DNA from: Oscillospiraceae bacterium | Lineage (GTDB): Bacteria; Bacillota; Clostridia; Oscillospirales; Ruminococcaceae | NCBI GenBank assembly: GCA_030533325.1 | Contig: JAUNJJ010000008.1 | Coordinates: 9,219 to 73,218 of the forward strand | DNA: 64,000 bases | Reading direction: 5' to 3' | Shown here: piece after piece, positions 7,250-27,368 of the stretch | Layout of the letters: every line of letters starts with the position of its first letter | Position numbering within the stretch: the stretch's first letter is position 1 | Translations under genes and position numbers: made by a program | Notes under the pieces: model-generated | Databases searched by the model: none | What the model saw: only the letters and a program-made list of their open reading frames with translations | What the model was told of the DNA's origin: nothing

Positions 7250-7416
7250 GATTTTTTCTCCAAGTTCAGTATAATATTATTATATCTCATATATGAAATT
7301 TGTTCAAGTTGTTTTTTTTACGGGGATTGAATTAATTAAGATTATGTGATATAATTAATTTAAGAAAACGTTTACTTAAATAATTGTTTTTTTAATGAAT
7401 TGAAAGGGTGTATGTA

Positions 7417-11963: not shown

Positions 11964-11992
11964 TTGACATTTTGAATGATGGGATGTATAAT
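11964..11992 (+). promoter_or_regulatory. Consensus sigma-A promoter (TTGACA-17-TATAAT) for the dockerin repeat protein
   Basis: TTGACA at 11964-11969, a 17-nt spacer ending in TG, and TATAAT at 11987-11992. Confidence 0.6.
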
Positions 11993-12029
11993 AAATTTTA
12001 TAAAATTATTTAAGGACGGGGGATTAAAA

Positions 12030-14237
12030 ATGAGAAGATTTTTATCAGGGATAGTTTCGCTGTGCATTGTTTCATCAATGATTTCACAGGTATTTGCCGA
12101 AGGTGACATTCTGAAGGGCGATGTTAATGCAGACGGTATTCTTTCGGCGGCGGATATTGTCAGTATGAAAAAATATCTGCTTGGTGTGGATGTACAGACT
12201 GACAGGGAAGCTGCTGACATTAACAGTGACGGTAATATAAACATAATCGATATGATTCGTCTTATAGGAATGTTTACCGGAGAAACAGCTGCTAAACCTT
12301 CAGTTGCTGAAGTCAACAAAAATGCAGGAAATATTTACAGTACGGCGGTTATGGCGGTAAGATATCTTTCCGGTACGGGAGAAACATTTGAAGACGGTAT
12401 TTACACCAGTGATGACAAGTCCGAACTAACCGGTCTTATTGAAAAAAATGCGGATATTCCTTCCGGTATGCGCTGGTGTATTTCTCTGAAAGATTCAGTC
12501 GTAACCGAATGCCTGTGTGAAACAGGGGGAGTTACAGGAGCTTATCCTAATGTAATACCTCAGATGATGAATGCTGATTACGATAAGGTTAAGTTTGAGG
12601 ATCTTATGGATATCTATACAGACTGGAAAACTGCTTATCCGGAATTTATGTCAGGAAATTCTACGCTCAGTGAATATCCGGAGATAAGTACGGCGGAGAT
12701 GAATCAAATAGCCTGCAACATTAATCATGTAGCAGATACATACAGGTTTTATACAGACATTAAGGGAAGCGAGTATTATGAACTTTCTGACAAAACAGGT
12801 TATTTTTCAGATACGGATTTATCAGAAGAATTCAGGGACTTCATATACAGGCTTTCAGGACTTAATCCAGCGAACACAAGATTTATCATATCAGTTAAAG
12901 ACGGCTATACAGAAGGCTGCATCTGTACAGATGCAGCCGGACAGATAACAGGCTCATATCCGAATGCCGTTCCGCAGACCATGAATGTACCTTTTTCGTC
13001 TGAATATGCCGGATTTTCTGATAAGAAAACATTCAACTGGAAAACTGAAATGCCGCAGTTTATATCTGATGATCCAATACAGTCCTCATTGCCGGATTAT
13101 CCGGAAAGATCGGTTTCAGAGTATAATTCAGCGGCCAGAAAGATTTTCAGTGAAGTTCAGTGTATCACTCAGGAACTTGAGGCACAGGGGACGGAGCTTA
13201 AAGACGGGATATACACTCAGGACAGTAAAGAATTTCTGGAACTGTCGATGCCGGAAATGAAATTTGCTGTTTTAATAGAAAACTATATAGTTGAAGCCTG
13301 TATTGTTTCTAATGACGATTTTATACGAAGCGGTGCATATCCGAGCGGTATTCCTCAGAGTATGAATATTCCTTTTGACAGTAAATATCTGAAAGATGCA
13401 TCAGATTCTGACACTGACTGGAAAATGAAATATCCGGAATTTATTTCTGAAGACCCTGTTCAGGCGGCACTTCCTGATTATCCGTTTAAGCCTGTATCGG
13501 AATATAACAGAATTTCAAAAAGTCTGTTTTCAGATATCCAGACTTTATTGTATGAATATGAAACAAAGGGAATAGATGTAAAGAACGGCATTTATACTGA
13601 TGAAGACGAACTGTGCAGTGAATTCAGATCGAGGGAATATCATTTTTCAGTACTTATTGAAGATTATGTTGTAAAAGGTGTAGCTGCCGGATGTGAAAAC
13701 TGTACCGGTACATATCCGAACGCAATGTCGTCCTGTGTTATTATGCCTTTTAATGAAAAACTTGCGGAAAATGCGGCAGAAGATATATTATGGGAAGCTG
13801 AGTATGCAGATTATGTTTCAGGTGACCTTAAACTGATTGCCCCTGAATATTGTTTTTGCTGTCAGCCGTCATCAGTTCTAAATGGTTGTGCGAAAAAACT
13901 TTTTACAGCAGCTCAGACTGCAGCTGTTAATTGTGAAGCACAAGGAATTATAATTGACGGAGTATACAGCAGCAGTGATTCAAATGAGTATGTTGGCATG
14001 GTGAAGAGTTATTTATCTGATAAGTGCGACTGGAGTGTAAAGGTTGAGAATAATTATCTTGTCGGGGCGTGCGTAAAAGATAAAAACAGCAGCAACATGG
14101 GTGCTTACCCTAATAAGGTGCCTAATCATCTTAGCGTTGAGTATAAAGGATACAATGAACTCTGCGAGAAAGATGCTGACAATGAAAAATGGAATGAAAC
14201 CGGACGCGAATGGTTCTGGTATGATTTTATACGGTAA
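12030..14237 (+). CDS. Secreted N-terminal-dockerin protein made of five ~125-aa repeats of an uncharacterised Cys-containing domain
   Basis: GGGGGA ribosome binding site and ATG at 12030 (MRRFLSG... signal peptide); dockerin loops DVNADGILSAADI / DINSDGNINIIDM; five repeats each carrying DG(I/V)YT...G(A/S/T)YPN(A/V)(V/I)PQ and paired Cys. The ORF-track start at 11976 is less likely. Confidence 0.75.
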   Translation: MRRFLSGIVSLCIVSSMISQVFAEGDILKGDVNADGILSAADIVSMKKYLLGVDVQTDREAADINSDGNINIIDMIRLIGMFTGETAAKPSVAEVNKNAGNIYSTAVMAVRYLSGTGETFEDGIYTSDDKSELTGLIEKNADIPSGMRWCISLKDSVVTECLCETGGVTGAYPNVIPQMMNADYDKVKFEDLMDIYTDWKTAYPEFMSGNSTLSEYPEISTAEMNQIACNINHVADTYRFYTDIKGSEYYELSDKTGYFSDTDLSEEFRDFIYRLSGLNPANTRFIISVKDGYTEGCICTDAAGQITGSYPNAVPQTMNVPFSSEYAGFSDKKTFNWKTEMPQFISDDPIQSSLPDYPERSVSEYNSAARKIFSEVQCITQELEAQGTELKDGIYTQDSKEFLELSMPEMKFAVLIENYIVEACIVSNDDFIRSGAYPSGIPQSMNIPFDSKYLKDASDSDTDWKMKYPEFISEDPVQAALPDYPFKPVSEYNRISKSLFSDIQTLLYEYETKGIDVKNGIYTDEDELCSEFRSREYHFSVLIEDYVVKGVAAGCENCTGTYPNAMSSCVIMPFNEKLAENAAEDILWEAEYADYVSGDLKLIAPEYCFCCQPSSVLNGCAKKLFTAAQTAAVNCEAQGIIIDGVYSSSDSNEYVGMVKSYLSDKCDWSVKVENNYLVGACVKDKNSSNMGAYPNKVPNHLSVEYKGYNELCEKDADNEKWNETGREWFWYDFIR

Positions 14238-14345
14238 ATGTAGAACCATGGATTGATAAATTCGTTAATAAATACAATGAAAAAGGTGAAAAATTAACAA
14301 TCAACGCTCTGACTAATTATTAACATATAAAAGGTGAGCTTTAAA

Positions 14346-15185
14346 ATGAAATCGAAAAAAAAATATATAATAGGAGTTATTCTGTTATTCATTAGTTTGA
14401 TTGTTTATTTTGGTTATCTGTATAATTTCACAGGTTGTATAGTAACACCCAAATATATATATTCATCTGATTATAACGACGAGCATTATGATATAAAACA
14501 GAAGGTAGAAATAGACAGTGTAAGTTCTATTGAGATAACGAGTTCGGATTATAAGTCAACTCTAAGTAACTTAAAGTATTGTAACAACTTATCAAAACTC
14601 ATACTTTACACTTATGATTGTTATGACAATATGAATTTTTTAAGTGACCTAAAGTATATTGAGTTTCTAACCACCACATGTAAATCTAAAAGTTGGGATG
14701 GAATAAGTGGATGTACAAAATTAAAGTCGATAACTATGTTTTCGTCTGATTTTTCAGATTTAAATCTTCTTTCAGGTTTTTCTGAACTTTCAGAGCTGAA
14801 AATAGAATCTGAAAAGCAGATGAAATATGGCGGTTTAGATACTTTAACATCTTTGGAAAAACTTGTTCTTGCAGTCCAAAATGCTGATTTAAAAGAAATT
14901 TCAAAGGCTCCGAAAATAAATGAATTAGAGTTTCACTGCTTAAAAGACACTTCAAATATAAGCTATATATCTGAAATGGAAAATTTGAATTTTATATTTT
15001 TTGGTGCATGCGATATAGATGAAGAGATGCTGATGGAGCTGTCTGAGATACAAAAATTAAAAGAATTAAATTTTTATCGTTGCAAGTTTGACTTTGACGA
15101 AGATACTTTTATAAAATATCTAAATGATATTACCTCTAAAAATATAATTGTTAAATATGAAAAAAATGAATATTTATCAAAATAG
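14346..15185 (+). CDS. Membrane-anchored LRR-like protein (paralogue of 18390..19226)
   Basis: N-terminal transmembrane helix then a leucine-rich repeat-like domain (LSDLKYIEFL.., W-DGISGC, LSELKIES..). ATG at 14346 with AAGGTGAG ribosome binding site; shares an architecture and motifs with the gene downstream of toxin-like copy A. Confidence 0.65.
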   Translation: MKSKKKYIIGVILLFISLIVYFGYLYNFTGCIVTPKYIYSSDYNDEHYDIKQKVEIDSVSSIEITSSDYKSTLSNLKYCNNLSKLILYTYDCYDNMNFLSDLKYIEFLTTTCKSKSWDGISGCTKLKSITMFSSDFSDLNLLSGFSELSELKIESEKQMKYGGLDTLTSLEKLVLAVQNADLKEISKAPKINELEFHCLKDTSNISYISEMENLNFIFFGACDIDEEMLMELSEIQKLKELNFYRCKFDFDEDTFIKYLNDITSKNIIVKYEKNEYLSK

Positions 15186-15187
15186 GA

Positions 15188-15290
15188 TCTTCTGTACATT
15201 TGGTCGATTGTAAACTGTATTTATTCTATGTTTCGCTTGGAAACAAATTTCATTGAATGTGACGTTGTTGCAGAGAGGCAGTTGATGTCT
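15188..15290. repeat. Conserved ~100-bp cassette-tail element (copy 1 of 2; other copy 22565..22667)
   Basis: ctg(t/c)acatttggtcgattgtaaactgtattta..ttgttgcagagaggcagttgatgt is shared immediately after the stop of two different downstream genes. Confidence 0.7.
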
Positions 15291-15536
15291 GCACAGGCAA
15301 TCAGCCTATCACTTTCGCTCCTGCTGTAAAGTGGCTTTATCTGCATAAACGCTGATGACTCTCAAATCTCAAAATAAAAGAATTTTTTTCTGATATTCAT
15401 ATCAGTATATCAAAGTCATTAAAACTACATGTTTTAGCGGATTAGTGCTAAAAAATATTGCAAAGAAGCAATAAAACTATCTAATTCATCTTAATTTTCC
15501 AAATATATATGGATGAATCACTGAACAAATAACAAA

Positions 15537-15582
15537 CAATCCCACCAAAACTGAGTTTTCAGAATCCGGTGGGATTGTTTTT
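15537..15582 (+). terminator. Shared hairpin terminator element (copy 1 of 4)
   Basis: caatcccacc-N21-ggtgggattg followed by TTTTT. The same element is at 19524..19569 and 22678..22724, with a right-half copy at 24458..24482. Confidence 0.7.
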
Positions 15583-15601
15583 ATTTAATATAAAGTAATA
15601 A

Positions 15602-15630
15602 TTGACAAATAAATCATTCTGATGTATAAT
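15602..15630 (+). promoter_or_regulatory. Perfect consensus sigma-A promoter of toxin-like cassette A
   Basis: TTGACA at 15602-15607, a 17-nt spacer ending in TG, and TATAAT at 15625-15630. Followed by GAAAGGAAG ribosome binding site (15647-15655) and ATG 15662. Confidence 0.7.
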
Positions 15631-15648
15631 ACTTTTATCAAACATTGA

Positions 15649-18360
15649 AAGGAAGTAGAAGATGACAACGGTATTTCCGATAACGGTGAAATTAAACTTG
15701 GACTTGATCCGCTGAAAATAAAATCAGACGGAAAAACTTCTGATGCAGAGAGAATATTTGAACAGAAGTTAGATACAGACAGTGAAACATTCAGAGTAAT
15801 AAACAGTGAAGAAAATCCATATAGATTATCAGTATCTGCGAAAGCATCCGGATATATAGGTGAATCTGTTAATGCAAACATAAGTTCATATTCAAATTAT
15901 CTTCAGAATGAGGCAGTTGCAGGTGATATAATTGATATCGACTATGCGGATTCTTTTAAAATTGAAACACTGACAATAAGCTTTACTGTTTCTGAGAATG
16001 CAGCAGATTATTACATATTCAGATATTTTGAGGATGTAAATATGCTTCTGCCGGTTGAAACCCAGTATGACGGAAACAGGGTATATACTGAGGCTGCAGA
16101 AGACGGAACGTACTGTATTGTTGACATGGATAAGTGGATTGAAAATACGGCTGAAACAACAGAGGTACAAAGTGCAGGTGATGTTTATAATGCAGTTTAT
16201 GCATCATCTGAAGCAAAATCGCTTGAAAGTCTGGAAGTATATTTTCTTATGTATATCAGAAGTTCAAGCATTGACAGTGCAAGAAGTTCTGTAGCAAATG
16301 CTTCAAGAGCAATTATTGACTACTGTAACAGTACCGGCAGAGATGTGAGACTGTATTTTGCTGGATATACTGGTGCAACAGCAGTATCAAATGAAACAGG
16401 AAACTCATATGCAGACAATGCATCAACAGATGAAGAAATTCAGGAAATGCTAAGCGGAACAGATTCGGCAACAGGTTCGCTTGACACTACAAATTTTGAC
16501 TATTCTCTTACACGTGCATTAAAGAAGAGTCTTCTCGAGATATCCGGAACCAATGAAAACAGTAAGAAGTACTGTTTTGTAGTAGATGTGAATTTTGAAC
16601 CGAAAAGTGCATCGAATGTTGCAGTTGTGGATGAGATGAAGAGTTATGGTGTCGATTTCAGTTTTATATGTAATGACCATAACAGTAATATTGTAAATTA
16701 TGAAAGTCTTTCTTCAGATGGCACGCATATAAGATGGACTCCGGATTTTTCTGAGGTTATTACTGATAAAGTTTTAGGTGCTGTAGTAACATACAACGTA
16801 AATACAGGCTTATGTAATAAAATTCCGTATAACGAGGCTTTAATAACATCAGAATGGAAAGATATCTATGAAAAATTCTATTCCGGAAAGCTTTCAATCG
16901 ATGAGATAAAGAAATTGGGACTGCCGGATACAGATGGAGACGGAAATCCGGACTGTCTTGAAATTTTCATGAAATATATTAGTTTTGATGAGAATGGAAA
17001 TATAATACTGCCTGCATACGACGAGCTTGCGAGAGATACTATGGGAAACAGCAGGTTTGGATTAAAGGGACTGGATGAATTAGTCAGTATCATGAAGAAA
17101 AAAGGAATGAACATCAGTGATTTACGCATTCTTCCGTTAATATCAAATCCTGCGTTTGAAGACAGTGATTTTGATGGAATACCGGATAGTACAGATAAAA
17201 GACCTTCTGAAGAAGATATTATCAGTGTTGATGATAATATTATAGACGACAGCAGAGTGTTCGAAAGTGATTATAAAACCATAAGTAATAATGCTGTTGA
17301 TGGAAATGGCATTGCATCATCACACAGCGGAGACAAAAAGAACAATATTATTAAGTATGCAAGACTTATACGTGCGGACGGAAAAGCAACTTCAAAATTT
17401 TATATTGAGCCTGACAATAACAGTGATTATCTTATAACAGTTGACACAGGAAAGTATGATGATTGTCAGATAAAGGTGTCTTATGAAAAGGGAATAATAT
17501 TCAAGAAGGATGTAGCTGTTTCAGATATTGAACTGGATGAAGGAATCGAAGAAAAAGAGCAGAACGGAAACGTTATGCATAACAGAAAAGCGTATTCACT
17601 GGAAAAAGGGAAAAAATATAAGGTAATTGTAACGATAGCATCAACAGATTTTGCAGCTAATAACTATAGTGTTTCTTTTGAGCAGAATAACTGGGTTTAT
17701 GCACCTAATGGCGGATATGACTTCACAAAGATAAATAATTTTATGCAGACAGAAACTGTTTATACCGATGGTAATAGTCTTTTCAACATGCTGAAGGAAG
17801 CTGTTGAAAAATTAAAAGGTCCAAATGAAATAAAGGCAGATTCATTAAATGATTATCTTGAAGGTAAAAACAATGATCAATTGCAGTATGTTGCTGAAAA
17901 GAATGCAGAAACATTATTGGATTTTCATAAATTTACGGATTCAGATTTAGAAAAAATAGTAGGTGATATAGGGAATGCTGCTTCTCTTACTGGATTAAGT
18001 TCTTGTATGTTCTTGTATTTGGCACAGGATTCCGAATCAATGGCAATTTTAGCATTGTTAAATGGAATTGGTAATGGTTCCACTATTATTGGAGGAATTA
18101 CAGCTATATATGCCATAGTATCTGCAAATTCAAGTAGTAGTGAACAGCTTCTTGGTAATGCATTATATGAAGGTAGATATAATATCGCTACACACACAAC
18201 AAAGTCTACCTATAGTGAGATTGAGAGAGATTTTAGTACAACAGTGGTGACATATTCCGGATGGAGTGAATCTCATTTTATTAATCGATATAATACCGAT
18301 AATACAAGAAAAACAATAGTTGTTTATTTCGAAGGATTAAATCAAACTGTTATAAAGTGA
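15649..18360 (+). CDS. Polymorphic-toxin-like large protein, copy A (conserved N-terminal ~690 aa plus unique C-terminal ~215 aa); start codon unresolved
   Basis: The reading frame is open from the stop at 15646-48 to 18360 and coding-like throughout. EF-hand/TSP3-like Ca loops (DTDGDGNPDCLE, DSDFDGIPDSTD). The C-terminal domain has a Gly-zipper hydrophobic segment (GIGNGSTIIGGITAIYAIV). First in-frame ATG is 16042, which has a GAGGA ribosome binding site. The ATG at 15662 with a strong ribosome binding site is in the +1 frame and stops after 17 codons. Confidence 0.7.
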   Translation, partial: KEVEDDNGISDNGEIKLGLDPLKIKSDGKTSDAERIFEQKLDTDSETFRVINSEENPYRLSVSAKASGYIGESVNANISSYSNYLQNEAVAGDIIDIDYADSFKIETLTISFTVSENAADYYIFRYFEDVNMLLPVETQYDGNRVYTEAAEDGTYCIVDMDKWIENTAETTEVQSAGDVYNAVYASSEAKSLESLEVYFLMYIRSSSIDSARSSVANASRAIIDYCNSTGRDVRLYFAGYTGATAVSNETGNSYADNASTDEEIQEMLSGTDSATGSLDTTNFDYSLTRALKKSLLEISGTNENSKKYCFVVDVNFEPKSASNVAVVDEMKSYGVDFSFICNDHNSNIVNYESLSSDGTHIRWTPDFSEVITDKVLGAVVTYNVNTGLCNKIPYNEALITSEWKDIYEKFYSGKLSIDEIKKLGLPDTDGDGNPDCLEIFMKYISFDENGNIILPAYDELARDTMGNSRFGLKGLDELVSIMKKKGMNISDLRILPLISNPAFEDSDFDGIPDSTDKRPSEEDIISVDDNIIDDSRVFESDYKTISNNAVDGNGIASSHSGDKKNNIIKYARLIRADGKATSKFYIEPDNNSDYLITVDTGKYDDCQIKVSYEKGIIFKKDVAVSDIELDEGIEEKEQNGNVMHNRKAYSLEKGKKYKVIVTIASTDFAANNYSVSFEQNNWVYAPNGGYDFTKINNFMQTETVYTDGNSLFNMLKEAVEKLKGPNEIKADSLNDYLEGKNNDQLQYVAEKNAETLLDFHKFTDSDLEKIVGDIGNAASLTGLSSCMFLYLAQDSESMAILALLNGIGNGSTIIGGITAIYAIVSANSSSSEQLLGNALYEGRYNIATHTTKSTYSEIERDFSTTVVTYSGWSESHFINRYNTDNTRKTIVVYFEGLNQTVIK

Positions 18361-18389
18361 CGAAATATCAAAGAATTGGGCGTAGAGAT

Positions 18390-19226
18390 ATGAAAACAGA
18401 AAAAATATTTAAAATACTTTTTTTCCCTTTTCTCGCTGTAGTTGTATACATGGTAATATGGCTTGTAAAAGGGCAACCGTTATTAACCAAAGTGGGTAAT
18501 ACATGGATGTGCACATACTCCAGTTATCTGGATTTTGATGATGATAATCTTAAAGAGTCAGATATACAGAAAATTCAGCGATTTGAATGGGTTGAAAAAT
18601 TTAACGGGTCCTTTTGGAATGTAAATAATTTGGAATGTATCAGAAATATGAAGAATTTAAAAACAATTCTTATTAGCATTTACAAACCCAATAATATTAT
18701 TGACTGGACTGGCATATCCAATTGTTCTAATATTGAAGATGTTTATATAAGTGGCGGTGAATTATCGGATTTATCTTCTTTTGTAGGTTTGAAAAAACTA
18801 AAATCTCTGGCACTTGAATGGGGACGTGAAGGTGCAGAAATAGATATACAGAAAATATCAGAGCTGACTTCTCTTGAATACCTTATAATTGAAGGTTATA
18901 CTATAAAGAATGTTGAAGCACTTAGTGATGTTTCAACATTGAAATCGATAATAATAAAGGGAAGAGCAGAGGATATTGTATCTTCATGTCCTGCTGATAA
19001 TTTAGAAATATTATGTTACAAGGCATATAGTGAATCTGAATTTGAAGCATCAGATTTTTTGAGATTTGAAAATCTAAAAAAATTATCTGTTACTGGTGCA
19101 TACATTAACAATATAGAGAATATTGTTGATATGAAAAATCTAGAAGAAATATCGGTAGATGGAGAACTGTATTCTGATGATGAGTTGTCTGTTTTGGAAA
19201 GTAATGGGATGTATGTTAACAGATAG
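18390..19226 (+). CDS. Membrane-anchored LRR-like protein, candidate cognate immunity/partner of copy A
   Basis: Starts 30 nt after the toxin-like stop (alternative GTG at 18357 overlaps that stop). N-terminal transmembrane helix plus LRR-like repeats (WTGISNCSNIEDVYISGGELSDLSSFVGLKKLKSLAL); paralogous to 14346..15185. Confidence 0.65.
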   Translation: MKTEKIFKILFFPFLAVVVYMVIWLVKGQPLLTKVGNTWMCTYSSYLDFDDDNLKESDIQKIQRFEWVEKFNGSFWNVNNLECIRNMKNLKTILISIYKPNNIIDWTGISNCSNIEDVYISGGELSDLSSFVGLKKLKSLALEWGREGAEIDIQKISELTSLEYLIIEGYTIKNVEALSDVSTLKSIIIKGRAEDIVSSCPADNLEILCYKAYSESEFEASDFLRFENLKKLSVTGAYINNIENIVDMKNLEEISVDGELYSDDELSVLESNGMYVNR

Positions 19227-19294
19227 ATGAACTGTTTTAGAAAATATATAAACAAATTTCAATTAATAAGTTGTCAAACGACCAATCGAATAAC

Positions 19295-19339
19295 AAAAGC
19301 CTGTCAAATAACGTATTTACGTTAATTGACAGGCTTTTG
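19295..19339 (+). terminator. Intrinsic terminator after LRR gene 2
   Basis: aaaagcctgtcaa...ttgacaggctttt hairpin with T-run. Confidence 0.6.
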
Positions 19340-19341
19340 TT

Positions 19342-19393
19342 ATCATATTAAATTCAGATTTGCAACAGGATATCCAATCCTTGTGGAATTCAG
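19342..19393. repeat. 52-bp dispersed element (second copy at 25563..25614, upstream of the Fic gene)
   Basis: atcatattaaattcagatttgcaacaggatatccaatccttgtggaattcag is present identically at both sites. Confidence 0.8.
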
Positions 19394-19507
19394 AGACAGA
19401 TATAAATTACAGTCAAACCATGACAGCGGAGTCGGAAGATATGATGTTATGCTTATACTGAAAATGCAAATGAAGGCAAGGAGGTACTTGTCGGGAGTGC
19501 ATAACAG

Positions 19508-21701
19508 CTGAACAAATAACAAACAATCCCACCGAAACTGAGTTTTCAGAATCCGGCGGGATTGTTTTTATTTAATATGAAGTAATAATTGACAAATAAA
19601 TCATTCTGATGTATAATACTTTTATCAAATATTGAAAGGAAGTAGAAGATGGCAACGGTATTTCCGATAACGGTGAAATTAAACTTGGACTTGATCCGTT
19701 AAAAATAAAATCAGACGGAAAAACTTCTGACGCAGAGAGAATATTTGAACAGAAGTTAGATACAGACAGTGAAACATTCAGAGTAATAAACAGTGAAGAA
19801 AATCCATATAGATTATCAGTATCTGCGAAAGCATCCGGATATATAGGTGAATCTGTTAATGCAAACATAAGTTCATATTCAAATTATCTTCAGAATGAGG
19901 CAGTTGCAGGTGATATAATTGATATCGACTATGCGGATTCTTTTAAAATTGAAACACTGACAATAAGCTTTACTGTTTCTGAGAATGCAGCAGATTATTA
20001 CATATTCAGATATTTTGAGGATGTAAATATGCTTCTGCCGGTTGAAACCCAGTATGACGGAAACAGGGTATATACTGAGGCTGCAGAAGACGGAACGTAC
20101 TGTATTGTTGACATGGATAAGTGGATTGAAAATACGGCTGAAACAACAGAGGTACAAAGTGCAGGTGATGTTTATAATGCAGTTTATGCATCATCTGAAG
20201 CAAAATCGCTTGAAAGTCTGGAAGTATATTTTCTTATGTATATCAGAAGTTCAAGCATTGACAGTGCAAGAAGTTCTGTAGCAAATGCTTCAAGAGCAAT
20301 TATTGACTACTGTAACAGTACCGGCAGAGATGTGAGACTGTATTTTGCTGGATATACTGGTGCAACAGCAGTATCAAATGAAACAGGAAACTCATATGCA
20401 GACAATGCATCAACAGATGAAGAAATTCAGGAAATGCTAAGCGGAACAGATTCGGCAACAGGTTCGCTTGACACTACAAATTTTGACTATTCTCTTACAC
20501 GTGCATTAAAGAAGAGTCTTCTCGAGATATCCGGAACCAATGAAAACAGTAAGAAGTACTGTTTTGTAGTAGATGTGAATTTTGAACCGAAAAGTGCATC
20601 GAATGTTGCAGTTGTGGATGAGATGAAGAGTTATGGTGTCGATTTCAGTTTTATATGTAATGACCATAACAGTAATATTGTAAATTATGAAAGTCTTTCT
20701 TCAGATGGCACGCATATAAGATGGACTCCGGATTTTTCTGAGGTTATTACTGATAAAGTTTTAGGTGCTGTAGTAACATACAACGTAAATACAGGCTTAT
20801 GTAATAAAATTCCGTATAACGAGGCTTTAATAACATCAGAATGGAAAGATATCTATGAAAAATTCTATTCCGGAAAGCTTTCAATCGATGAGATAAAGAA
20901 ATTGGGACTGCCGGATACAGATGGAGACGGAAATCCGGACTGTCTTGAAATTTTCATGAAATATATTAGTTTTGATGAGAATGGAAATATAATACTGCCT
21001 GCATACGACGAGCTTGCGAGAGATACTATGGGAAACAGCAGGTTTGGATTAAAGGGACTGGATGAATTAGTCAGTATCATGAAGAAAAAAGGAATGAACA
21101 TCAGTGATTTACGCATTCTTCCGTTAATATCAAATCCTGCGTTTGAAGACAGTGATTTTGATGGAATACCGGATAGTACAGATAAAAGACCTTCTGAAGA
21201 AGATATTATCAGTGTTGATGATAATATTATAGACGACAGCAGAGTGTTCGAAAGTGATTATAAAACCATAAGTAATAATGCTGTTGATGGAAATGGCATT
21301 GCATCATCACACAGCGGAGACAAAAAGAACAATATTATTAAGTATGCAAGACTTATACGTGCGGACGGAAAAGCAACTTCAAAATTTTATATTGAGCCTG
21401 ACAATAACAGTGATTATCTTATAACAGTTGACACAGGAAAGTATGATGATTGTCAGATAAAGGTGTCTTATGAAAAGGGAATAATATTCAAGAAGGATGT
21501 AGCTGTTTCAGATATTGAACTGGATGAAGGAATCGAAGAAAAAGAGCAGAACGGAAACGTTATGCATAACAGAAAAGCGTATTCACTGGAAAAAGGGAAA
21601 AAATATAAGGTAATTGTAACGATAGCATCAACAGATTTTGCAGCTAATAACTATAGTGTTTCTTTTGAGCAGAATAACTGGGTTCATGCACCTAATGGAG
21701 G
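19508..21701 (+). repeat. 2.19-kb tandem duplication block B
   Basis: See block A; promoter TTGACA 19589-19594 / TATAAT 19612-19617, ribosome binding site, and ATG 19649 in the +1 frame as in copy A. Confidence 0.95.
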
Positions 21702-22269
21702 TATACAACATGTCGTTCCGTATAACTGTTATTTTCCAGTTGATAGAATGTTTATAGCTACGGACACTTTTAAGCTAGCATTACAAAAAAACCATAAAAT
21801 CATGATAGACGAAAATTCAGATACAGAAAGTCAAACGAAAGCTATTATGAAACAATTAGGCCTTGATGATGGTAAGAAAGTTCTTTTTGATAGTTTTCTT
21901 ACTGCTGTCGGTACTTGTATATCGGGAAGTGCTACTGCTGCTGCAATAGTTGATCCGGAACCTGGAACGAAAATAATAATTGCATGTATAGCGGATGGTA
22001 TAAATACATATTTTGTGGCTTCTTCAATAAAATCTACATTTGGATATTTTGAATCTAAAGATTTTGAAAATGCTTGCAATGAAGGCGATATTAACCTTAT
22101 ATTCACTAAAAAAGGGCAAGTAACATTTTTTCAAGATCTTTGGGATCCATGGAAAACCGCTCCGTATATAAGCAAATATGATACAGATTCAATGAATGGA
22201 AGAACAAAAAGAACAATTGATAAAAATATAACCGCTGAATCAGTTATAAGTTATTGTGGGTTAAAATGA
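19636..22269 (+). CDS. Polymorphic-toxin-like large protein, copy B (same N-terminal ~690 aa, different C-terminal ~190 aa)
   Basis: Open frame from the stop at 19633-35. Identical to copy A up to ...SFEQNNWV, then unrelated (HAPNGGIQHVVPYNCYF...). The C-terminal domain has a hydrophobic Gly/Ala-rich segment (AVGTCISGSATAAAIV...IIIACIADGI). Confidence 0.7.
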   Translation, partial: KEVEDGNGISDNGEIKLGLDPLKIKSDGKTSDAERIFEQKLDTDSETFRVINSEENPYRLSVSAKASGYIGESVNANISSYSNYLQNEAVAGDIIDIDYADSFKIETLTISFTVSENAADYYIFRYFEDVNMLLPVETQYDGNRVYTEAAEDGTYCIVDMDKWIENTAETTEVQSAGDVYNAVYASSEAKSLESLEVYFLMYIRSSSIDSARSSVANASRAIIDYCNSTGRDVRLYFAGYTGATAVSNETGNSYADNASTDEEIQEMLSGTDSATGSLDTTNFDYSLTRALKKSLLEISGTNENSKKYCFVVDVNFEPKSASNVAVVDEMKSYGVDFSFICNDHNSNIVNYESLSSDGTHIRWTPDFSEVITDKVLGAVVTYNVNTGLCNKIPYNEALITSEWKDIYEKFYSGKLSIDEIKKLGLPDTDGDGNPDCLEIFMKYISFDENGNIILPAYDELARDTMGNSRFGLKGLDELVSIMKKKGMNISDLRILPLISNPAFEDSDFDGIPDSTDKRPSEEDIISVDDNIIDDSRVFESDYKTISNNAVDGNGIASSHSGDKKNNIIKYARLIRADGKATSKFYIEPDNNSDYLITVDTGKYDDCQIKVSYEKGIIFKKDVAVSDIELDEGIEEKEQNGNVMHNRKAYSLEKGKKYKVIVTIASTDFAANNYSVSFEQNNWVHAPNGGIQHVVPYNCYFPVDRMFIATDTFKLALQKNHKIMIDENSDTESQTKAIMKQLGLDDGKKVLFDSFLTAVGTCISGSATAAAIVDPEPGTKIIIACIADGINTYFVASSIKSTFGYFESKDFENACNEGDINLIFTKKGQVTFFQDLWDPWKTAPYISKYDTDSMNGRTKRTIDKNITAESVISYCGLK

Positions 22270-22270
22270 T

Positions 22271-22558
22271 ATGATTAAGTTATTTGTTTGCTTGTTACTT
22301 AATGCAATTGATGTTTTTTACTTTAAAAATAAAAATAAAACGACACTCACATTTGTGCTGCTGGGTTTAGTTATATATTCTTTATATTTTTTTGAAGTTT
22401 CAAATGTTATATATTTAATCGATATTTATGTAGCAAGTTTGTTTTTATTGAATTGTTATTATTTGAGAAAGCAAAAGCAAAAAAAATTCGGTACATTAAC
22501 AGCATTAATGCAATTGCTGATAGTAATAATTATGGGAATAATAATAAAATTTACCTAA
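22271..22558 (+). CDS. Small multi-pass membrane protein, candidate immunity protein for copy B
   Basis: ATG 1 nt after the toxin-like stop (TGAtATG); 95 aa with 3 predicted transmembrane helices and a KQKQKK loop. Confidence 0.55.
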   Translation: MIKLFVCLLLNAIDVFYFKNKNKTTLTFVLLGLVIYSLYFFEVSNVIYLIDIYVASLFLLNCYYLRKQKQKKFGTLTALMQLLIVIIMGIIIKFT

Positions 22559-22564
22559 TAGGCT

Positions 22565-22667
22565 CTTCTGCACATTTGGTCGATTGTAAACTGTATTTAA
22601 TCTACGTTTTACTTGACAGCGGATTCCATTGGATGTGACTTTGTTGCAGAGAGGCAGTTGATGTTTG
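22565..22667. repeat. Conserved cassette-tail element (copy 2)
   Basis: About 85% identical to 15188..15290; runs directly into the hairpin element 22678..22724. Confidence 0.7.
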
Positions 22668-22739
22668 AACTGGAAGACTATCCCACCGAAACTGAATTTT
22701 CAGAATCCGGTGGGATTGTTTTTTGGCTTTTATTATTCC

Positions 22740-22815
22740 TAAGAATCATATCTTTTTATTCTGTATTTCAGATTTCTGCTGCTTGGTTTATCAGGAACAG
22801 TACGTTCAATCAGAC
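22740..22815 (-). pseudogene. 3'-terminal fragment of a Fic-family gene (about 25 codons plus stop), duplicate of the 3' end of 24490..25518
   Basis: The reverse-strand translation GLIERTVPDKPSSRNLKYRIKRYDS* matches the Fic C-terminus ..GVIERTVPDKPSSRNQKYRIRRYVSSE*. About 115 bp (22700..22815) is about 88% identical to 24458..24572. Confidence 0.75.
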
Positions 22816-22863
22816 CTTAAAATTATGGTATACTCGTAGTAAAATGCGTTTTTACCTGACACT

Positions 22864-22893
22864 TGACTTTTTCGCTTCTATTATAGTATAATT
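22864..22893 (+). promoter_or_regulatory. Promoter of the AAA+ ATPase gene, followed by two 17-bp direct repeats
   Basis: TTGACT-18-TATAAT. aaacctgcg(c/t)at(a/t)atgg occurs at 22898-22914 and 22966-22983. Confidence 0.45.
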
Positions 22894-22979
22894 ATCATAA
22901 ACCTGCGCATAATGGAATTTAGAATGCATTGTAAACATGCGTATTCGGGAATAAATCAGCAAATCAAAACCTGCGTATT

Positions 22980-24356
22980 ATGGAGAGAGGCATAATTATG
23001 ATACTGAAACGAAAAATGTACAACAAGCTGTTGACTCTCAAAAACGAGCTGTACGGCAAGAAAGCCTTTCTTATCGAAGGGGCAAGGCGTATCGGCAAGT
23101 CAACGATATGCGAGGAATTCGGCAAAAACGAATATAAGAGCTACATCCTCATAGACTTCGCCAAGTGTCCCAATGAGGTGAAGGACTATTTTGTCAAGCA
23201 CATGAACGACCTTGATACGTTTTTCATGCTGCTTTCTACCTACTACGGCGTGAAGCTGTATGACCGTGAGTCGCTTATCATCTTTGACGAGGTTCAGATG
23301 TACCCGAAAGCGAGGGAGTGCGTCAAGTACCTTGTTGCAGACGGAAGGTACGACTATATCGAAACAGGCTCGCTGATTTCGATTAAAGAGAACGTTAAGA
23401 ACATTGTAATTCCCTCGGAGGAGCGTCACATTAATATGTATCCGATGGATTTTGAGGAATTCTGCGATGCACTGGGTGAGGAACAGATATGCGGATATAT
23501 TCGCAAGTGCTTTGCCGACAGGATGCCTCTTGAAAACGAGCTGCACCACAAGGCTATGCTACTGTTCAAGCAGTATATGCTTGTGGGTGGTATGCCGCAG
23601 AGCGTAATTGCGTTCCTTGAAAGCCGAAAGGACTTTGACAGGGCAGACATTGAAAAGCGTGACATTCTCTCGTTGTACCGCAGTGACATTATGAAGATAG
23701 ATAGCAAGTACCGAAGCAAAGTTCTCACCATATTCGATCAGATACCGGGGCTGCTCTCTCAGCACGAAAAGCGTGTCGTTTTTAATGACGTTTCGGCTGG
23801 CAGTAAAGCCGATCAGTATGAGGAGACTTTCTTCTGGCTGTCTGATTCGATGATATCCAATGAGTGCTTTCTGTGCAATGACCCGAATGTAGGGTTGTCA
23901 ATCAACGAGAACAGAGCGTATGTGAAATGCTATCTCGGTGACACGGGTCTGCTCGTCAGCCATGCATTTGACGAGAATGAACTGCTTGAAGATGAGGTCT
24001 ACAAGCAGATTCTCGGTGACAAGCTGAACATGAACGAGGGTATGCTCTATGAGAACGCTATCGCTCAGATGTTGACAGCCAACGGTCACAAACTGTATTT
24101 CTATACGCAGTACAATGCTGAAAAGCACCGAAACGATATAGAGATAGACTTTCTCATCTCCAACAACAGCAAGCTGAAATACAAGATGTTCCCGATAGAA
24201 GTCAAGTCGGGTAAGAAGTATTCAATCGAATCGCTCAAACGCTTCAAGGAGAAATATAAAGCTCGGATTGGTGAATGCTATGTTATCCACCCACGCAATC
24301 TCTGCTTCAAAAATGACATCGTCTGCATACCGCCTTATATGACAATATGTCTATAA
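22980..24356 (+). CDS. AAA+ ATPase with DUF4143 C-terminal domain (COG1373-like)
   Basis: Walker A GARRIGKST and Walker B LIIFDEVQ. Overall architecture matches the widespread 'ATPase (AAA+ superfamily)' proteins. Alternative start at ATG 22998. Confidence 0.7.
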   Translation: MERGIIMILKRKMYNKLLTLKNELYGKKAFLIEGARRIGKSTICEEFGKNEYKSYILIDFAKCPNEVKDYFVKHMNDLDTFFMLLSTYYGVKLYDRESLIIFDEVQMYPKARECVKYLVADGRYDYIETGSLISIKENVKNIVIPSEERHINMYPMDFEEFCDALGEEQICGYIRKCFADRMPLENELHHKAMLLFKQYMLVGGMPQSVIAFLESRKDFDRADIEKRDILSLYRSDIMKIDSKYRSKVLTIFDQIPGLLSQHEKRVVFNDVSAGSKADQYEETFFWLSDSMISNECFLCNDPNVGLSINENRAYVKCYLGDTGLLVSHAFDENELLEDEVYKQILGDKLNMNEGMLYENAIAQMLTANGHKLYFYTQYNAEKHRNDIEIDFLISNNSKLKYKMFPIEVKSGKKYSIESLKRFKEKYKARIGECYVIHPRNLCFKNDIVCIPPYMTICL

Positions 24357-24489
24357 CCAAAACTATCTGTATTTCCTGATAAAGCGATTGTGCATGATTG
24401 ATTTTTAACCTCTCACATTTTCGTGTGGAGGTTTTAATTTGTGTAGAATAATTGGCTCCAGAATCCGGCGGGATTGTTTTTTACTTTTA

Positions 24490-25518
24490 TTATTCTGAAG
24501 AAACATATCTTCTGATTCTGTATTTCTGATTTCTGCTGCTTGGTTTATCAGGAACAGTACGTTCAATCACGCCTTTTTCCAGTGCAGGTGACAGATAATT
24601 TTTCCTGAAAGTAGGTTTATGTGATAATCCAAGTCTGCTCATAAGTTCAGAAGCAGAAAGTTCTGATGTTCCCAATGCAGATAAAAGTTTCGTAATGTTA
24701 TCAGTAACCTGGTCGGTATCCTGGTCGGTATCCTGGTCGCTGACCTGGTCGGTTGTAGTAACAGTGCTGTTCATGGTATCTGTTATCGTATCAAGCATAA
24801 ATTCTATAAATCTGGTTGAATCAGCAGCATCGTTGCAGTAATTAATGGTTTTATAGTATTCCTGTTGCTTTTTATAAATCATTGATTCTATTGGTAAAAA
24901 TGCAAAAACAGGATTCCAGCTGAAGAGAAGAAGAGTGTGCCAGAGCCTTCCTATTCGTCCGTTTCCGTCTGAAAAGGGATGAATCAACTCAAATTCATAA
25001 TGAAAAACACAGATTTTTATCAGCATATGAACATCACTTTCTTCAGTCCATTTCAGAAGGCTGACTACCATTTCCGGAACATAGTCAGGAAGTGTGCCGA
25101 AGTGGATAATCTGACCTGTGCTGCTGTCTGCGACTCCGACGGGATGATCACGAAATTCGCCAGCATTGTTTAAAAGACCTTTCATCATTACACCATGTGC
25201 ATTTAAAAGGTCATCACATGAAAACGGATTAAGAAGGTGCATGTTTTCGTATATTTCATATGCGTTTTTTACTTCTTTTATGTCTTTTGGAGGAGCCAGT
25301 ACGGTTTTTCCGTTTATCACATCTGTTATCTGTTCCAGAGTAAGACTGTTCTGTTCAATTGCAAGTGAGCCCTGAATTGTAAGTATTCTGTTTTTCCTGC
25401 GCAGAGTAGGGTTTCGTTCAAGGTTTGCTGATGCAGATATTTTCCCTGTAAGTTCTGCAATCCGGGCAACCTCTTCTATTATTTTGTTATTTATCTTAAA
25501 AGGCGGTGAATAGGACAT
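24490..25518 (-). CDS. Fic-family protein (AMPylation/Doc-like fold) with C-terminal winged-helix region
   Basis: Canonical Fic motif HPFSDGNGRIGRLWHTLLL; N-terminal Fic_N-like segment; internal 12-bp tandem repeats encoding a DQ(D/V)(S/T) repeat. Confidence 0.85.
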   Translation of the reverse strand: MSYSPPFKINNKIIEEVARIAELTGKISASANLERNPTLRRKNRILTIQGSLAIEQNSLTLEQITDVINGKTVLAPPKDIKEVKNAYEIYENMHLLNPFSCDDLLNAHGVMMKGLLNNAGEFRDHPVGVADSSTGQIIHFGTLPDYVPEMVVSLLKWTEESDVHMLIKICVFHYEFELIHPFSDGNGRIGRLWHTLLLFSWNPVFAFLPIESMIYKKQQEYYKTINYCNDAADSTRFIEFMLDTITDTMNSTVTTTDQVSDQDTDQDTDQVTDNITKLLSALGTSELSASELMSRLGLSHKPTFRKNYLSPALEKGVIERTVPDKPSSRNQKYRIRRYVSSE

Positions 25519-25739
25519 GTGAAACTCCTTTGAATTATAAAAATTATTATTATTATTACTGTATCATATTAAATTCAGATTTGCAACAGGATATCCAATC
25601 CTTGTGGAATTCAGGCAGATAGTATATTTCAAAGCACGATTATGTCTTTCGGACATAATTACATAGCGGTAAAACAGCACCTTTTGACAGGGTGCTGTTT
25701 TATGCATTAAATGGAAGTATTCATTTATTGTTCCCGCTA

Positions 25740-27368
25740 TCATATTCCATTCTGACGATTCTGCTTAAACTTCTGCTTATTTTCGTACATCATAGTATCT
25801 GCACGTTTCATAGTTGCGTCGAGATCTTCATCAATATTTTCATCATAAACTGCGTAACCCGCAGAAACGCTCATATTAACAACAAATTTTTTCCTGTTCA
25901 GCTCCCGGATTTTCTTCTGAATAATTCTGAGCTTGCTATCTATCTCGTTCTGACCTGTATACTGCATAAGTACACAGAATTCATCGCCACCTATTCGGTA
26001 ACATTTTCCATCTACTCCGAATGCCTCAGATATGATTTTTGATACAGATGAGATGTATATATCTCCGTTCTCATGTCCGAACTGATCATTGCATTTTTTC
26101 AGGTCATTAAGATCAAAAATGAAAACTGCAACAGGTATAATCTTCTTTTCCCCGGTATTTTTGTCCTCGATGACCAGCTTGTCCATATCTGCACGAAACG
26201 CTGTACGGTTAAAAACTCCGGTAAGTTCATCCGTAAATGCAAGATTCTTATAAATCTCTGCTTCGTTTGCACGTTCCTTGATTTTCTGTGACTCTTTTAC
26301 AATATTAGCAGCCATGATAACTACGTATATTATGAAGCAGAACATACCATAGCTGCTGTCTTTATTGAACAGTTTCAGGACCATTATCTCAAGAAGAGTC
26401 GCAGCCAGTATTATAATCAGACAAATAATGTTGATTCTGAGTCGCCTTGTTACTCTGTGCGTCACAAATTCCTTTACGCCTAAAACTATGCCAACTACAG
26501 CAAAAACTAAAATATATAACTGAGTTATCCATAAAGTCTCACGCATCTCTGCTATCCGGAATACATCTAAAACTGTTCTTATAATAACCAGTCCGACACC
26601 TGCATACTGAGTGATGTCCCACAGGATATTTTCCTTGTCAGTATATATCTGGCGAAGAAACTGAAGAAATGCAACAGGCATAAGCATCAGTGAATAATGA
26701 TTCAGCATAGTACACACAAGTGTACCGGGAAACAGGAGATCACATACTTTTGAATTAGTTGCTGCCCATACTGCAAGAAGTATGCTGAATACTGAAAAGA
26801 ATACCGGCGTCGAATCAGCATAATTCAGTTTAAGAATAAATACTGAATACAGCATCAGAATAATTCCGACAACAAGAATAATTACTGCAAGTGTCATTCT
26901 TAATCCGTAATCTGTAAATATTGCTTTATAGATATCAGAAGTTTCGCCAAAATACAGTATATCATCAGGAGATATATTTTTATAAGGTGATTTTTGATGA
27001 ATTACAATATTCTTACCTGCATCTTTATCACTGAGTTTGATAAAGTTCCATCTGTATCCGGTTGAGTGTGTTCTTGATTCATCAAAAGGACGGCATTCAT
27101 AGATTTTAACGCCATCAATAAAAACTTCTGAACTGAAATGAGATGTATTGTAAGCAAGATTCTTTCCCGTTACATCCATATCCGGCAGTGTGAATTCATA
27201 ATAGAAATTCCCTGATTTTTCTTCAAACTCCATATTGATTTTTACAGCACCGTCATACCTTGTCCTGTTCTCAAAAGAACATCCGAGCCCTGATCCGACA
27301 ATATATGCAAACAGAACAGACACTGCAAAAAACACGAGAAAAAAATAATCATATTTTTTCCTGTTCAT
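25740..27368 (-). CDS. Diguanylate cyclase with extracytoplasmic sensor plus 7TM module (7TMR-DISM-like) and C-terminal GGDEF domain
   Basis: Signal/transmembrane helix, ~150-aa extracellular domain, seven hydrophobic helices, then GGDEF with an intact active site (YRIGGDEFCVLM) and an I-site-like RxxD (KKCND). Confidence 0.8.
   Translation of the reverse strand: MNRKKYDYFFLVFFAVSVLFAYIVGSGLGCSFENRTRYDGAVKINMEFEEKSGNFYYEFTLPDMDVTGKNLAYNTSHFSSEVFIDGVKIYECRPFDESRTHSTGYRWNFIKLSDKDAGKNIVIHQKSPYKNISPDDILYFGETSDIYKAIFTDYGLRMTLAVIILVVGIILMLYSVFILKLNYADSTPVFFSVFSILLAVWAATNSKVCDLLFPGTLVCTMLNHYSLMLMPVAFLQFLRQIYTDKENILWDITQYAGVGLVIIRTVLDVFRIAEMRETLWITQLYILVFAVVGIVLGVKEFVTHRVTRRLRINIICLIIILAATLLEIMVLKLFNKDSSYGMFCFIIYVVIMAANIVKESQKIKERANEAEIYKNLAFTDELTGVFNRTAFRADMDKLVIEDKNTGEKKIIPVAVFIFDLNDLKKCNDQFGHENGDIYISSVSKIISEAFGVDGKCYRIGGDEFCVLMQYTGQNEIDSKLRIIQKKIRELNRKKFVVNMSVSAGYAVYDENIDEDLDATMKRADTMMYENKQKFKQNRQNGI

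Follow-up and report, generated by a model that had tools for sequence, protein, structure and literature searches.

What do the two tandem cassettes at positions 15521-22558 of the 64,000-nucleotide (nt) stretch analysed here (the window; contig JAUNJJ010000008.1 of an Oscillospiraceae bacterium) encode, each of which pairs a large gene with a downstream gene for a membrane protein? An earlier note on this DNA had proposed an undescribed polymorphic effector family, made up of complete proteins of ~880 amino acids (aa) with unrelated C-termini. In this study we demonstrated a polymorphic architecture, co-variation of cognate genes, orphan cassettes, an orphan partner gene and partners located at the membrane or surface. 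We consider the locus, with a probability of about 0.6, to be three cassettes of a single polymorphic effector family of cellulolytic Oscillospiraceae, in an array that is decaying and being rearranged; the family would be a putative toxin-immunity system and the copies in the window unexported orphans. Of the earlier proposal, the polymorphic C-termini, the co-varying partners and the orphans stood, and we found no description of the family. The complete effectors did not stand, as the window genes are 5'-deleted derivatives without an in-frame start, and the C-termini were found to form a single family.

Tandem cassettes, C-terminal domain and partner genes

The blocks at 15521-17714 and 19508-21701 aligned without gaps at an offset of 3987 and differed at 10 of 2,194 bases (15547, 15570, 15592, 15643, 15665, 15712, 15714, 15744, 17698 and 17712). 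Eight mismatches lay in the first 224 nt, none in 15745-17697 (~1.95 kb), and the last two followed it. Beyond the limits of the repeat an ungapped comparison gave background identity (20-40%), and the common protein sequence of the two cassettes stopped at NNWV(Y/H)APNGG. The near-identity of the two 2.19-kb blocks and its sharp end after 17714, both noticed earlier, were thereby confirmed. Cassette A contains a 5'-truncated family gene in a 903-codon open frame (15649-18360, plus strand; first in-frame start at 16042). Cassette B contains a second one in an 877-codon open frame (19636-22269, plus strand; first in-frame start at 20029), with the body as in cassette A and unique sequence after 21701.

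The C-terminal domains CT1 (cassette A, residues 680-903, nt 17686-18357) and CT2 (cassette B, nt 21673-22266), both on the plus strand, were described as unrelated in the earlier note. They are 19-22% identical, can be aligned over their full length, have an invariant N, W, G and W in common, and align end to end with 15 other C-termini. By sequence, CT1 and CT2 are divergent homologues from one new domain family. The domain of ~200 aa begins at an NW.Y.PNGG strand, which holds the invariant N, W and G, while the second invariant W stands near a W...YI.KY motif. At its centre are two uncharged helices in which Gly, Ala, Ser and Thr abound (mean Kyte-Doolittle values of 1.2-1.7 across 19 residues), flanked by beta-sheet. 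No match to a known fold or family, toxin folds included, was obtained for the domain, in line with the earlier remark that no toxin fold could be recognised.

When the alignment of C-terminal domains was used as query in a protein search, four short fragments only were returned. An exhaustive profile search across 1.84 billion representatives yielded 100 clusters at 50% identity. In all long matches the domain was located at the C-terminal end or at most ~40 residues from it; about 60 matches were short proteins of <500 aa, which are likely orphan cassettes or assembly fragments. Seven long matches were scanned with Pfam: six carried dockerin, CBM2 or Glug domains together with TSP3 and/or vWA domains, and one gave no match.

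Each large gene is followed by a different membrane-protein gene, as had been claimed. The partner of CT1 (18357-19226, plus strand; likely start ATG 18390) encodes an N-terminal transmembrane (TM) helix and a leucine-rich repeat (LRR) ectodomain. The partner of CT2 (22271-22558, plus strand) encodes a 95-aa protein with 3-4 hydrophobic helices. We surveyed the partners in 23 related loci, 13 of which reach the end of a family gene and provided 16 gene pairs. In these 16 pairs the next gene encoded a TM+LRR protein of 255-320 aa, mostly within 0-30 nt; a small protein with 2-4 TM helices was the next product in three more cases (window cassette B, L012 and L017). All examined partners were membrane-tethered or lipoprotein-like. 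Partner identity tracked the identity of the C-terminal domain (Spearman 0.23, reached by 37 of 5,000 Mantel permutations), with paired similarities such as 81% and 82%, 52% and 45%, or 42% and 47%. Whether homologues of the N-terminal region carry varied C-termini and partners, a question raised by the earlier note, could thus be answered positively: many alternative C-termini were found, and their partner genes co-vary with them.

The related locus L001 allowed the same comparison between two strains. The CT2 partner is 95% identical to its 97-aa counterpart there, and CT2 itself is 98% identical. The CT1 partner is 42-45% identical to its counterpart, and the flanking DNA ~96%. Synonymous divergence (dS) between window and L001 was 0.09-0.21 in the flanking genes and 1.37 in CT1, the partner of which is 42% identical. 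We concluded from a dS of 1.37 and a partner of 42% identity amid conserved flanks that C-terminal domain and partner were replaced as a unit.

Remoter relatives built on the same scaffold end in a peptidase M15/VanY domain, a peptidase M23 domain (both peptidoglycan hydrolases) or DUF4474. Directly upstream of two distant family genes we found complete agr-type modules (L012 4250-6957 and L021 1830-4831), comprising a LytTR response regulator, a GHKL histidine kinase, AgrB and an AgrD-like peptide with a Cys-containing core. Truncated fragments were also detected outside the window. C-terminus fragments lacking the 5' part of the gene and accompanied by their own partner are present downstream of full-length genes (L002/L009 and L014) and also in L017 and L018; their partners are TM+LRR proteins, or a 2-TM protein in one L017 case. 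L013 contains full-length family genes in tandem.

A third and more decayed cassette is located in the window at 14234-15185. It begins with the relic of a gene 3' end (14234-14325, plus strand; 29 codons plus stop, VNVEPWIDKFVNKYNEKGEKLTINALTNY), which belongs to a C-terminal domain of the P0008 type and abuts the stop codon of an upstream 753-aa dockerin gene. The relic is followed by LRR0 (14334-15185, plus strand; likely start ATG 14346), an orphan immunity-like partner with an N-terminal TM helix and LRRs and with LRR/internalin-like matches. Relic and LRR0 are collinear with the P0008 locus L024, at 74% nucleotide identity over 227 nt that cover the end of the P0008 gene and the start of its partner, beginning exactly at 14234. 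On this collinearity we regard LRR0 as cognate to a deleted P0008-type C-terminal domain. Compared with L001, synteny breaks at 14238 and the window carries an insertion at 14239-15533; LRR0 is missing in L001. A sequence that is conserved after partner genes, D2 (15181-15297, plus strand), is an 85% copy of D2' (22557-22673, plus strand), which follows the 95-aa gene and precedes a terminator-like hairpin. D2 may serve as the right-hand homology arm of a cassette.

The 5' deletion and the protein body

A search with the shared 688 aa gave 27 relatives. Two of these were the window's own proteins (P0003 and P0004; Q4D76_03065 and Q4D76_03075 of the metagenome-assembled genome at NCBI, 'Oscillospiraceae bacterium'; 772 and 746 aa, 100% identical to the query), and P0001, P0002 and P0006 begin where the window frames begin. 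The remaining relatives with a complete N-terminus are 1,000-1,170 aa long. Upstream of the shared body, P0005, P0009, P0012, P0013, P0014 and P0017-19 have a signal peptide, a dockerin (PF00404) and TSP3_bac repeats (PF18884). The secretion module of full-length relatives, a signal peptide with dockerin or CBM2, is deleted from both window copies; the type I dockerin detected by Pfam in full-length relatives is absent from both window frames, which match the hidden Markov model of the family body only from profile position 197. The lack of a signal peptide that had been noted earlier thus applies to the window copies, where it is due to the 5' deletion, but not to the family.

In the DNA alignment with L005, which has a full-length gene, homology starts at ~15645, within the L-K-E-D codons, where the window has TGA and the full-length gene TTA. 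The 60 nt upstream of this point align with the -35 and -10 elements, the Shine-Dalgarno (SD) sequence (AAAGGAA) and the ATG of the full-length genes in L005 and L004. Together with the signal peptide, dockerin/CBM2 and TSP3 repeats upstream in the full-length relatives, this alignment identifies the window genes as internal 5' deletion derivatives of a full-length gene that kept the native promoter and SD sequence. Lost in the deletion were the signal peptide, the dockerin and the majority of the TSP3 repeats, and the first ATG is no longer in frame. The simplest history would be an internal deletion of ~0.75 kb at a short AAAGGAAG/GATG microhomology, the exact junction being ambiguous within those bases. 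AAAGGAAG matches the native SD sequence of the family as well as the internal L-K-E-D codons.

The truncated form was seen in several metagenomes with three types of C-terminus (P0001, P0002, P0006 and members of the P0004 cluster). In L008 (144-4846) three reading frames stand in a row, namely a 123-aa fragment that includes signal peptide and dockerin, an LRR partner gene, and a family gene beginning after the dockerin; this different beheading suggests recurrent 5' rearrangements in the family. The 753-aa dockerin protein encoded upstream of the cassettes was considered as the missing N-terminal half and rejected, as its dockerin and five repeats are unrelated to the N-terminus of the family.

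The earlier note had included both promoter and ribosome-binding site in the repeat. The promoter was confirmed: TTGACA-17-TATAAT, a 12/12 match to the sigma-70 consensus, is present on the plus strand at 15602-15630 (cassette A) and 19589-19617 (cassette B). These are the sole perfect matches in 14200-23000, and the one in cassette A is a homologue of the promoter natively found upstream of full-length family genes (L004, L005). The ribosome-binding site was not borne out for the ~880-aa frames. An ATG at 15662/19649 is ideally spaced from AAAGGAAG, yet it lies +1 out of frame and its reading frame stops after 17 codons. The long frames open at 15649/19636, right after an in-frame TGA, and contain no ATG, GTG or TTG before 16042/20029; the listed open reading frames (ORFs) are therefore only 772 and 746 aa long. 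A programmed frameshift from ATG 15662 or TTG 15645 was rejected, because neither an X XXY YYZ heptamer nor a prfB-like site was found in the 17-codon and 6-codon ORFs. A start at 16042/20029 was likewise rejected; the apparent SD sequence GAGGAT encodes the family-wide EDVNM motif there, and the first beta-sandwich would be cut.

A terminator-like hairpin of 47 nt, with a stem of 11-13 bp followed by a U-run, occurs three times on the plus strand of the window (0 expected by chance): at 15536-15582 (dG -23.3 kcal/mol, z -5.4), at 19523-19569 (dG -22.1 kcal/mol, z -5.9) and, at the end of the cassette array, at 22677-22723 (dG -24.8 kcal/mol, z -5.0).

Neither large window protein had a significant match in Pfam or NCBIfam. 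An AlphaFold model from a 15-sequence alignment (mean pLDDT 71) predicted, in this order, a beta-sandwich (residues 37-160), a vWA alpha/beta fold (194-383), a helical segment with two Ca loops, a second beta-sandwich (525-680) and the C-terminal domain. With Foldseek, residues 194-383 resembled vWF A3, integrin I domains and TRAP (probability 1.0, target-normalised TM-score 0.5-0.6), and Pfam VWA and VWA_4 matched remoter relatives. The DxSxS motif of a metal ion-dependent adhesion site was not present after strand beta-1, where VYFLMYIRSSS was read by eye at the corresponding place. The EF-hand/TSP3-like Ca loops reported earlier were recovered: the motifs DTDGDGNPDCLE and DSDFDGIPD are both in the window frames, at residues 426-438 and 505-513 of cassette A, and D427, D429, D431, D435 and E438 as well as D505, D507, D509 and D513 are invariant across the family alignment. 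PF18884 (TSP3_bac) matched family relatives, and NCBIfam gave weak matches to CglD and MtsD via TSP3 repeats. The earlier note had counted a structural N-terminal region as evidence against an effector family; such a region was found in part, in the form of a cellulosome-docked, adhesin-like vWA/TSP3 scaffold, which is compatible with an effector role.

The family is strongly mosaic. When P0006, P0009 and P0019 were compared with 15649-18357, sliding identity switched between >90% and <30% at module borders, namely those of the vWA block, the second beta-sandwich and the C-terminal domain. The SNP..DSD.DGI.D loop ahead of the second beta-sandwich marks a second recombination junction.

Within each genome, window and L001, the repeat copies are identical over ~2 kb; between the two genomes they are 96-98% identical, though the modules of C-terminus and partner are orthologous. 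Taken at face value, this combination would indicate concerted evolution. However, all surviving differences between copies, at 15521-15744 and 17698-17714 in the window and at 8176-8251 in L001 (a SPAdes contig), form chains with spacings of at most 51 nt that are tied to unique flanking sequence in both assemblies. We suspect an artefact, because such chains are what de Bruijn merging at k=55 and bubble removal leave behind. The perfect identity may be an assembly collapse and is not trustworthy without reads, and the very recent duplication or ongoing gene conversion postulated earlier is not supported, being based on an identity that short-read assembly could create.

Competing explanations and known systems

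In the mechanism that we propose, intact members of the family would be secreted via Sec and held on the cellulosome or the cellulose fibre by their dockerin or CBM2. The C-terminal domain would be a putative antibacterial toxin acting on envelope or membrane, the helical hairpin of which inserts into the target membrane from outside. The downstream gene would provide cognate immunity at the surface of the producer, either as a type II membrane-anchored LRR ectodomain or as a small multi-TM protein. Such cassettes would most likely be used in competition between strains. Indirect support for an effector comes from the M15/VanY, M23 or DUF4474 ends of same-scaffold relatives, from the agr-type modules directly upstream of two family genes, and from known immunity proteins, which include LRR proteins (Imm-LRR) and two-TM proteins (Imm-CdiI) as accepted types (PMC3482391). 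The window genes would not be exported, and the promoter they retain may transcribe the partner genes and so protect against toxins of neighbours. The 2-kb body and the flank of D2 and hairpin could offer homology for recombinational swapping of C-terminus-plus-partner modules. We put forward only tentatively the full picture, in which a dockerin- or CBM2-tethered vWA/TSP3 stalk presents a new membrane-inserting toxin domain to neighbours on the fibre, surface LRR proteins act as extracellular immunity, and promoter-bearing beheaded cassettes form a recombination library for toxin-immunity switching.

We favour unexported orphan cassettes for the window copies because they have no export signal, no anchor and no in-frame start. 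Several observations weigh against this reading. Neither the 903-codon nor the 877-codon frame is interrupted, and both are under purifying selection, which fits a translated gene better than a silent one: between window and L001 the ratio of non-synonymous to synonymous rates (dN/dS) is ~0.23 for the body, with values of 0.12-0.25 along it, the 131 codons ahead of the first ATG included, and 0.05 for CT2 (15 synonymous and 3 non-synonymous changes). Among 5.8 billion proteins we found no full-length protein >75% identical to the window body, so that an expression locus for the cassettes was not demonstrated. CT2-type domains were seen in truncated genes only, and the C-terminal domain, in the seven long matches scanned, on one scaffold only. 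Classical polymorphic toxin domains shuffle among several delivery systems. The truncated genes might instead be translated and functional, from a GTG as in relatives or from an unconventional start, with a product that is released by lysis or an unknown route or acts intracellularly. Such a function would also agree with the occurrence of the truncated form in several metagenomes, and with the position of the partner genes, which adjoin or overlap the preceding stop codons in an arrangement suggestive of translational coupling. We nevertheless think it unlikely. L001, with the same two beheaded cassettes, has GTG where both window copies have GTA, and this GTG lies merely 1-2 nt past the SD sequence. 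The well-spaced ATG is out of frame with no slippery site evident, translation from 16042 would truncate the first beta-sandwich (37-160), and an export signal is absent.

Rather improbable in our view is that no toxin is involved, and that C-terminal domain and LRR protein form a polymorphic surface pair for adhesion or kin recognition, in which the domain binds or inserts beside its own LRR partner and diversity arises from self/non-self or phage pressure. The scaffold is indeed adhesin-like (vWA fold, TSP3 repeats, weak CglD/MtsD matches), the C-terminal domain has no known toxin fold and stays on one scaffold among the matches examined, and LRR ectodomains are classic receptors. Intact orphan partner genes that outlast their C-terminal domain are however a signature of immunity and not of a receptor, same-scaffold relatives end in peptidoglycan hydrolases, and some partners are tiny multi-TM proteins without a binding domain. 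It is very improbable that the large frames are plain pseudogenes from a frame-breaking deletion, that only the downstream membrane-protein genes are functional, and that the identity of the copies is an assembly artefact. The native SD sequence and ATG left out of frame, the neighbouring cassette already reduced to a 29-codon relic, and the restriction of surviving copy differences to chains of at most 51-nt spacing from unique flanks in both assemblies would all be accounted for in this way. An open frame of ~2.7 kb in AT-rich DNA has, on the other hand, survived since the strains split (dS ~0.08), and only 3 of 18 changes in CT2 are non-synonymous, against ~14 expected under neutrality.

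The putative toxin-immunity system resembles the polymorphic Rhs, CdiA and MafB systems (Zhang et al. 2012, PMC3482391) in its long conserved N-terminal body, in a variable C-terminal domain with a short conserved motif at its start, in the cognate gene immediately downstream with LRR and small-TM partner types, in module replacement from strain to strain, and in 5'-truncated orphan C-terminus-plus-partner modules downstream of the main gene. It differs from them in a body made up of dockerin (or CBM2), TSP3, vWA and beta-sandwiches with plain Sec export in a Gram-positive organism, in variable domains that are divergent homologues of one new domain instead of unrelated folds, and in window orphans that keep ~75% of the body and the promoter. 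As the earlier note had stated for YD/Rhs, LXG, VENN and PT-TG, none of these domains, nor FHA/TPS, DPxGL or MafB, was detected by Pfam in the window proteins (E up to 0.1) or in the scanned relatives (E up to 0.001-0.01).

C-terminal toxins that depolarise or perforate membranes and are countered by membrane immunity proteins include CdiA-CT of E. coli EC93, with its two-TM CdiI, and the glycine-zipper LXG toxin TelE. The family shares with these a small-residue-rich, uncharged helical hairpin and partners that are embedded in or anchored to the membrane, here by prediction; similarity in sequence or fold was not detected, and delivery in those cases is by type V or type VII secretion. Like the cellulosomal dockerin proteins of ruminococci, full-length relatives have a type I dockerin after the signal peptide; unlike them they have no catalytic carbohydrate-active module, and the dockerin is lost from both window copies. 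In Neisseria, silent 5'-truncated pilS cassettes serve gene conversion at pilE. The window likewise has tandem 5'-truncated copies that are open, without usable start and with long mutual homology, although an expression locus was not identified and the cassettes here have a strong promoter and a second functional-looking gene.

No model for the C-terminal domain or the body exists in Pfam (2025), NCBIfam (2026) or PADLOC, and in full-text literature searches a polymorphic effector built from dockerin, TSP3 and vWA modules was nowhere described. The words 'thrombospondin', 'vWA' and 'Ruminococcus' are missing from Zhang et al. 2012 (PMC3482391), a paper that was also not among the full-text matches pairing 'dockerin' with 'polymorphic toxin'. 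A 2026 paper remarks in passing that dockerin and cohesin domains co-occur with PT-TG domains (PMC13483458). The family is apparently undescribed, yet polymorphic toxin-immunity systems as such are known.

Surroundings and biological meaning

The cassette proteins had no match in PADLOC, and Rfam none in 14000-26000. Further downstream, 22980-24356 (plus strand) encodes a 458-aa AAA_14/DUF4143 ATPase, which PADLOC assigned to its candidate defence family PDC-S01 (E 2e-103). L001 lacks the entire segment 22813-24458, which in the window is bracketed by a direct repeat of ~118 nt (~90% identical; 22701-22818 and 24459-24575), a duplicate of the 3' end of a Fic gene. This gene (24490-25518, minus strand), conserved in L001, encodes a Fic/DOC protein with a Fic-like C-terminal domain that matches the PADLOC single-gene system SoFic (E 6.5e-44); its proximity places the cassette array within a small conflict/defence island. 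After the LRR gene of cassette A a near-perfect, terminator-like palindrome of 54 nt is found (19290-19343). The ~70 nt that come next, at 19341-19411, recur upstream of the Fic gene (25562-25631, 92% identity), a further trace of local rearrangement.

Directly upstream of the cassettes, 11976-14237 (plus strand) encodes the 753-aa protein mentioned above. It combines a signal peptide and a type I dockerin with five internal repeats of ~130 aa (GAYPN.IPQ.MN-like) without family assignment, and is 86% conserved in L001. A CBM35-GH26 (mannanase)-dockerin gene at 7408-9342 (plus strand) is syntenic with L001 and confirms the cellulosomal lifestyle of the host, a fibre degrader of gut or rumen; other dockerin proteins are also encoded in the window.

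Since the 1990s, protein-mediated and strain-specific inhibition has been reported among rumen ruminococci, for the most part with no molecular explanation (review PMC6606855). If our reading is true, polymorphic effectors anchored to cellulosome or cellulose would explain competition on plant fibre by a mechanism that is concrete and testable, and dockerin proteins would gain an antagonistic, non-enzymatic function. For annotation, the 772- and 746-aa 'hypothetical proteins' of the metagenome-assembled genome are beheaded family members, and the new C-terminal domain, a putative effector with ~100 clusters at 50% identity, has no family assignment so far. Many membrane-anchored LRR proteins would become candidate extracellular immunity factors, and the system as a whole would be a Gram-positive, Sec-only analogue of contact-dependent inhibition.

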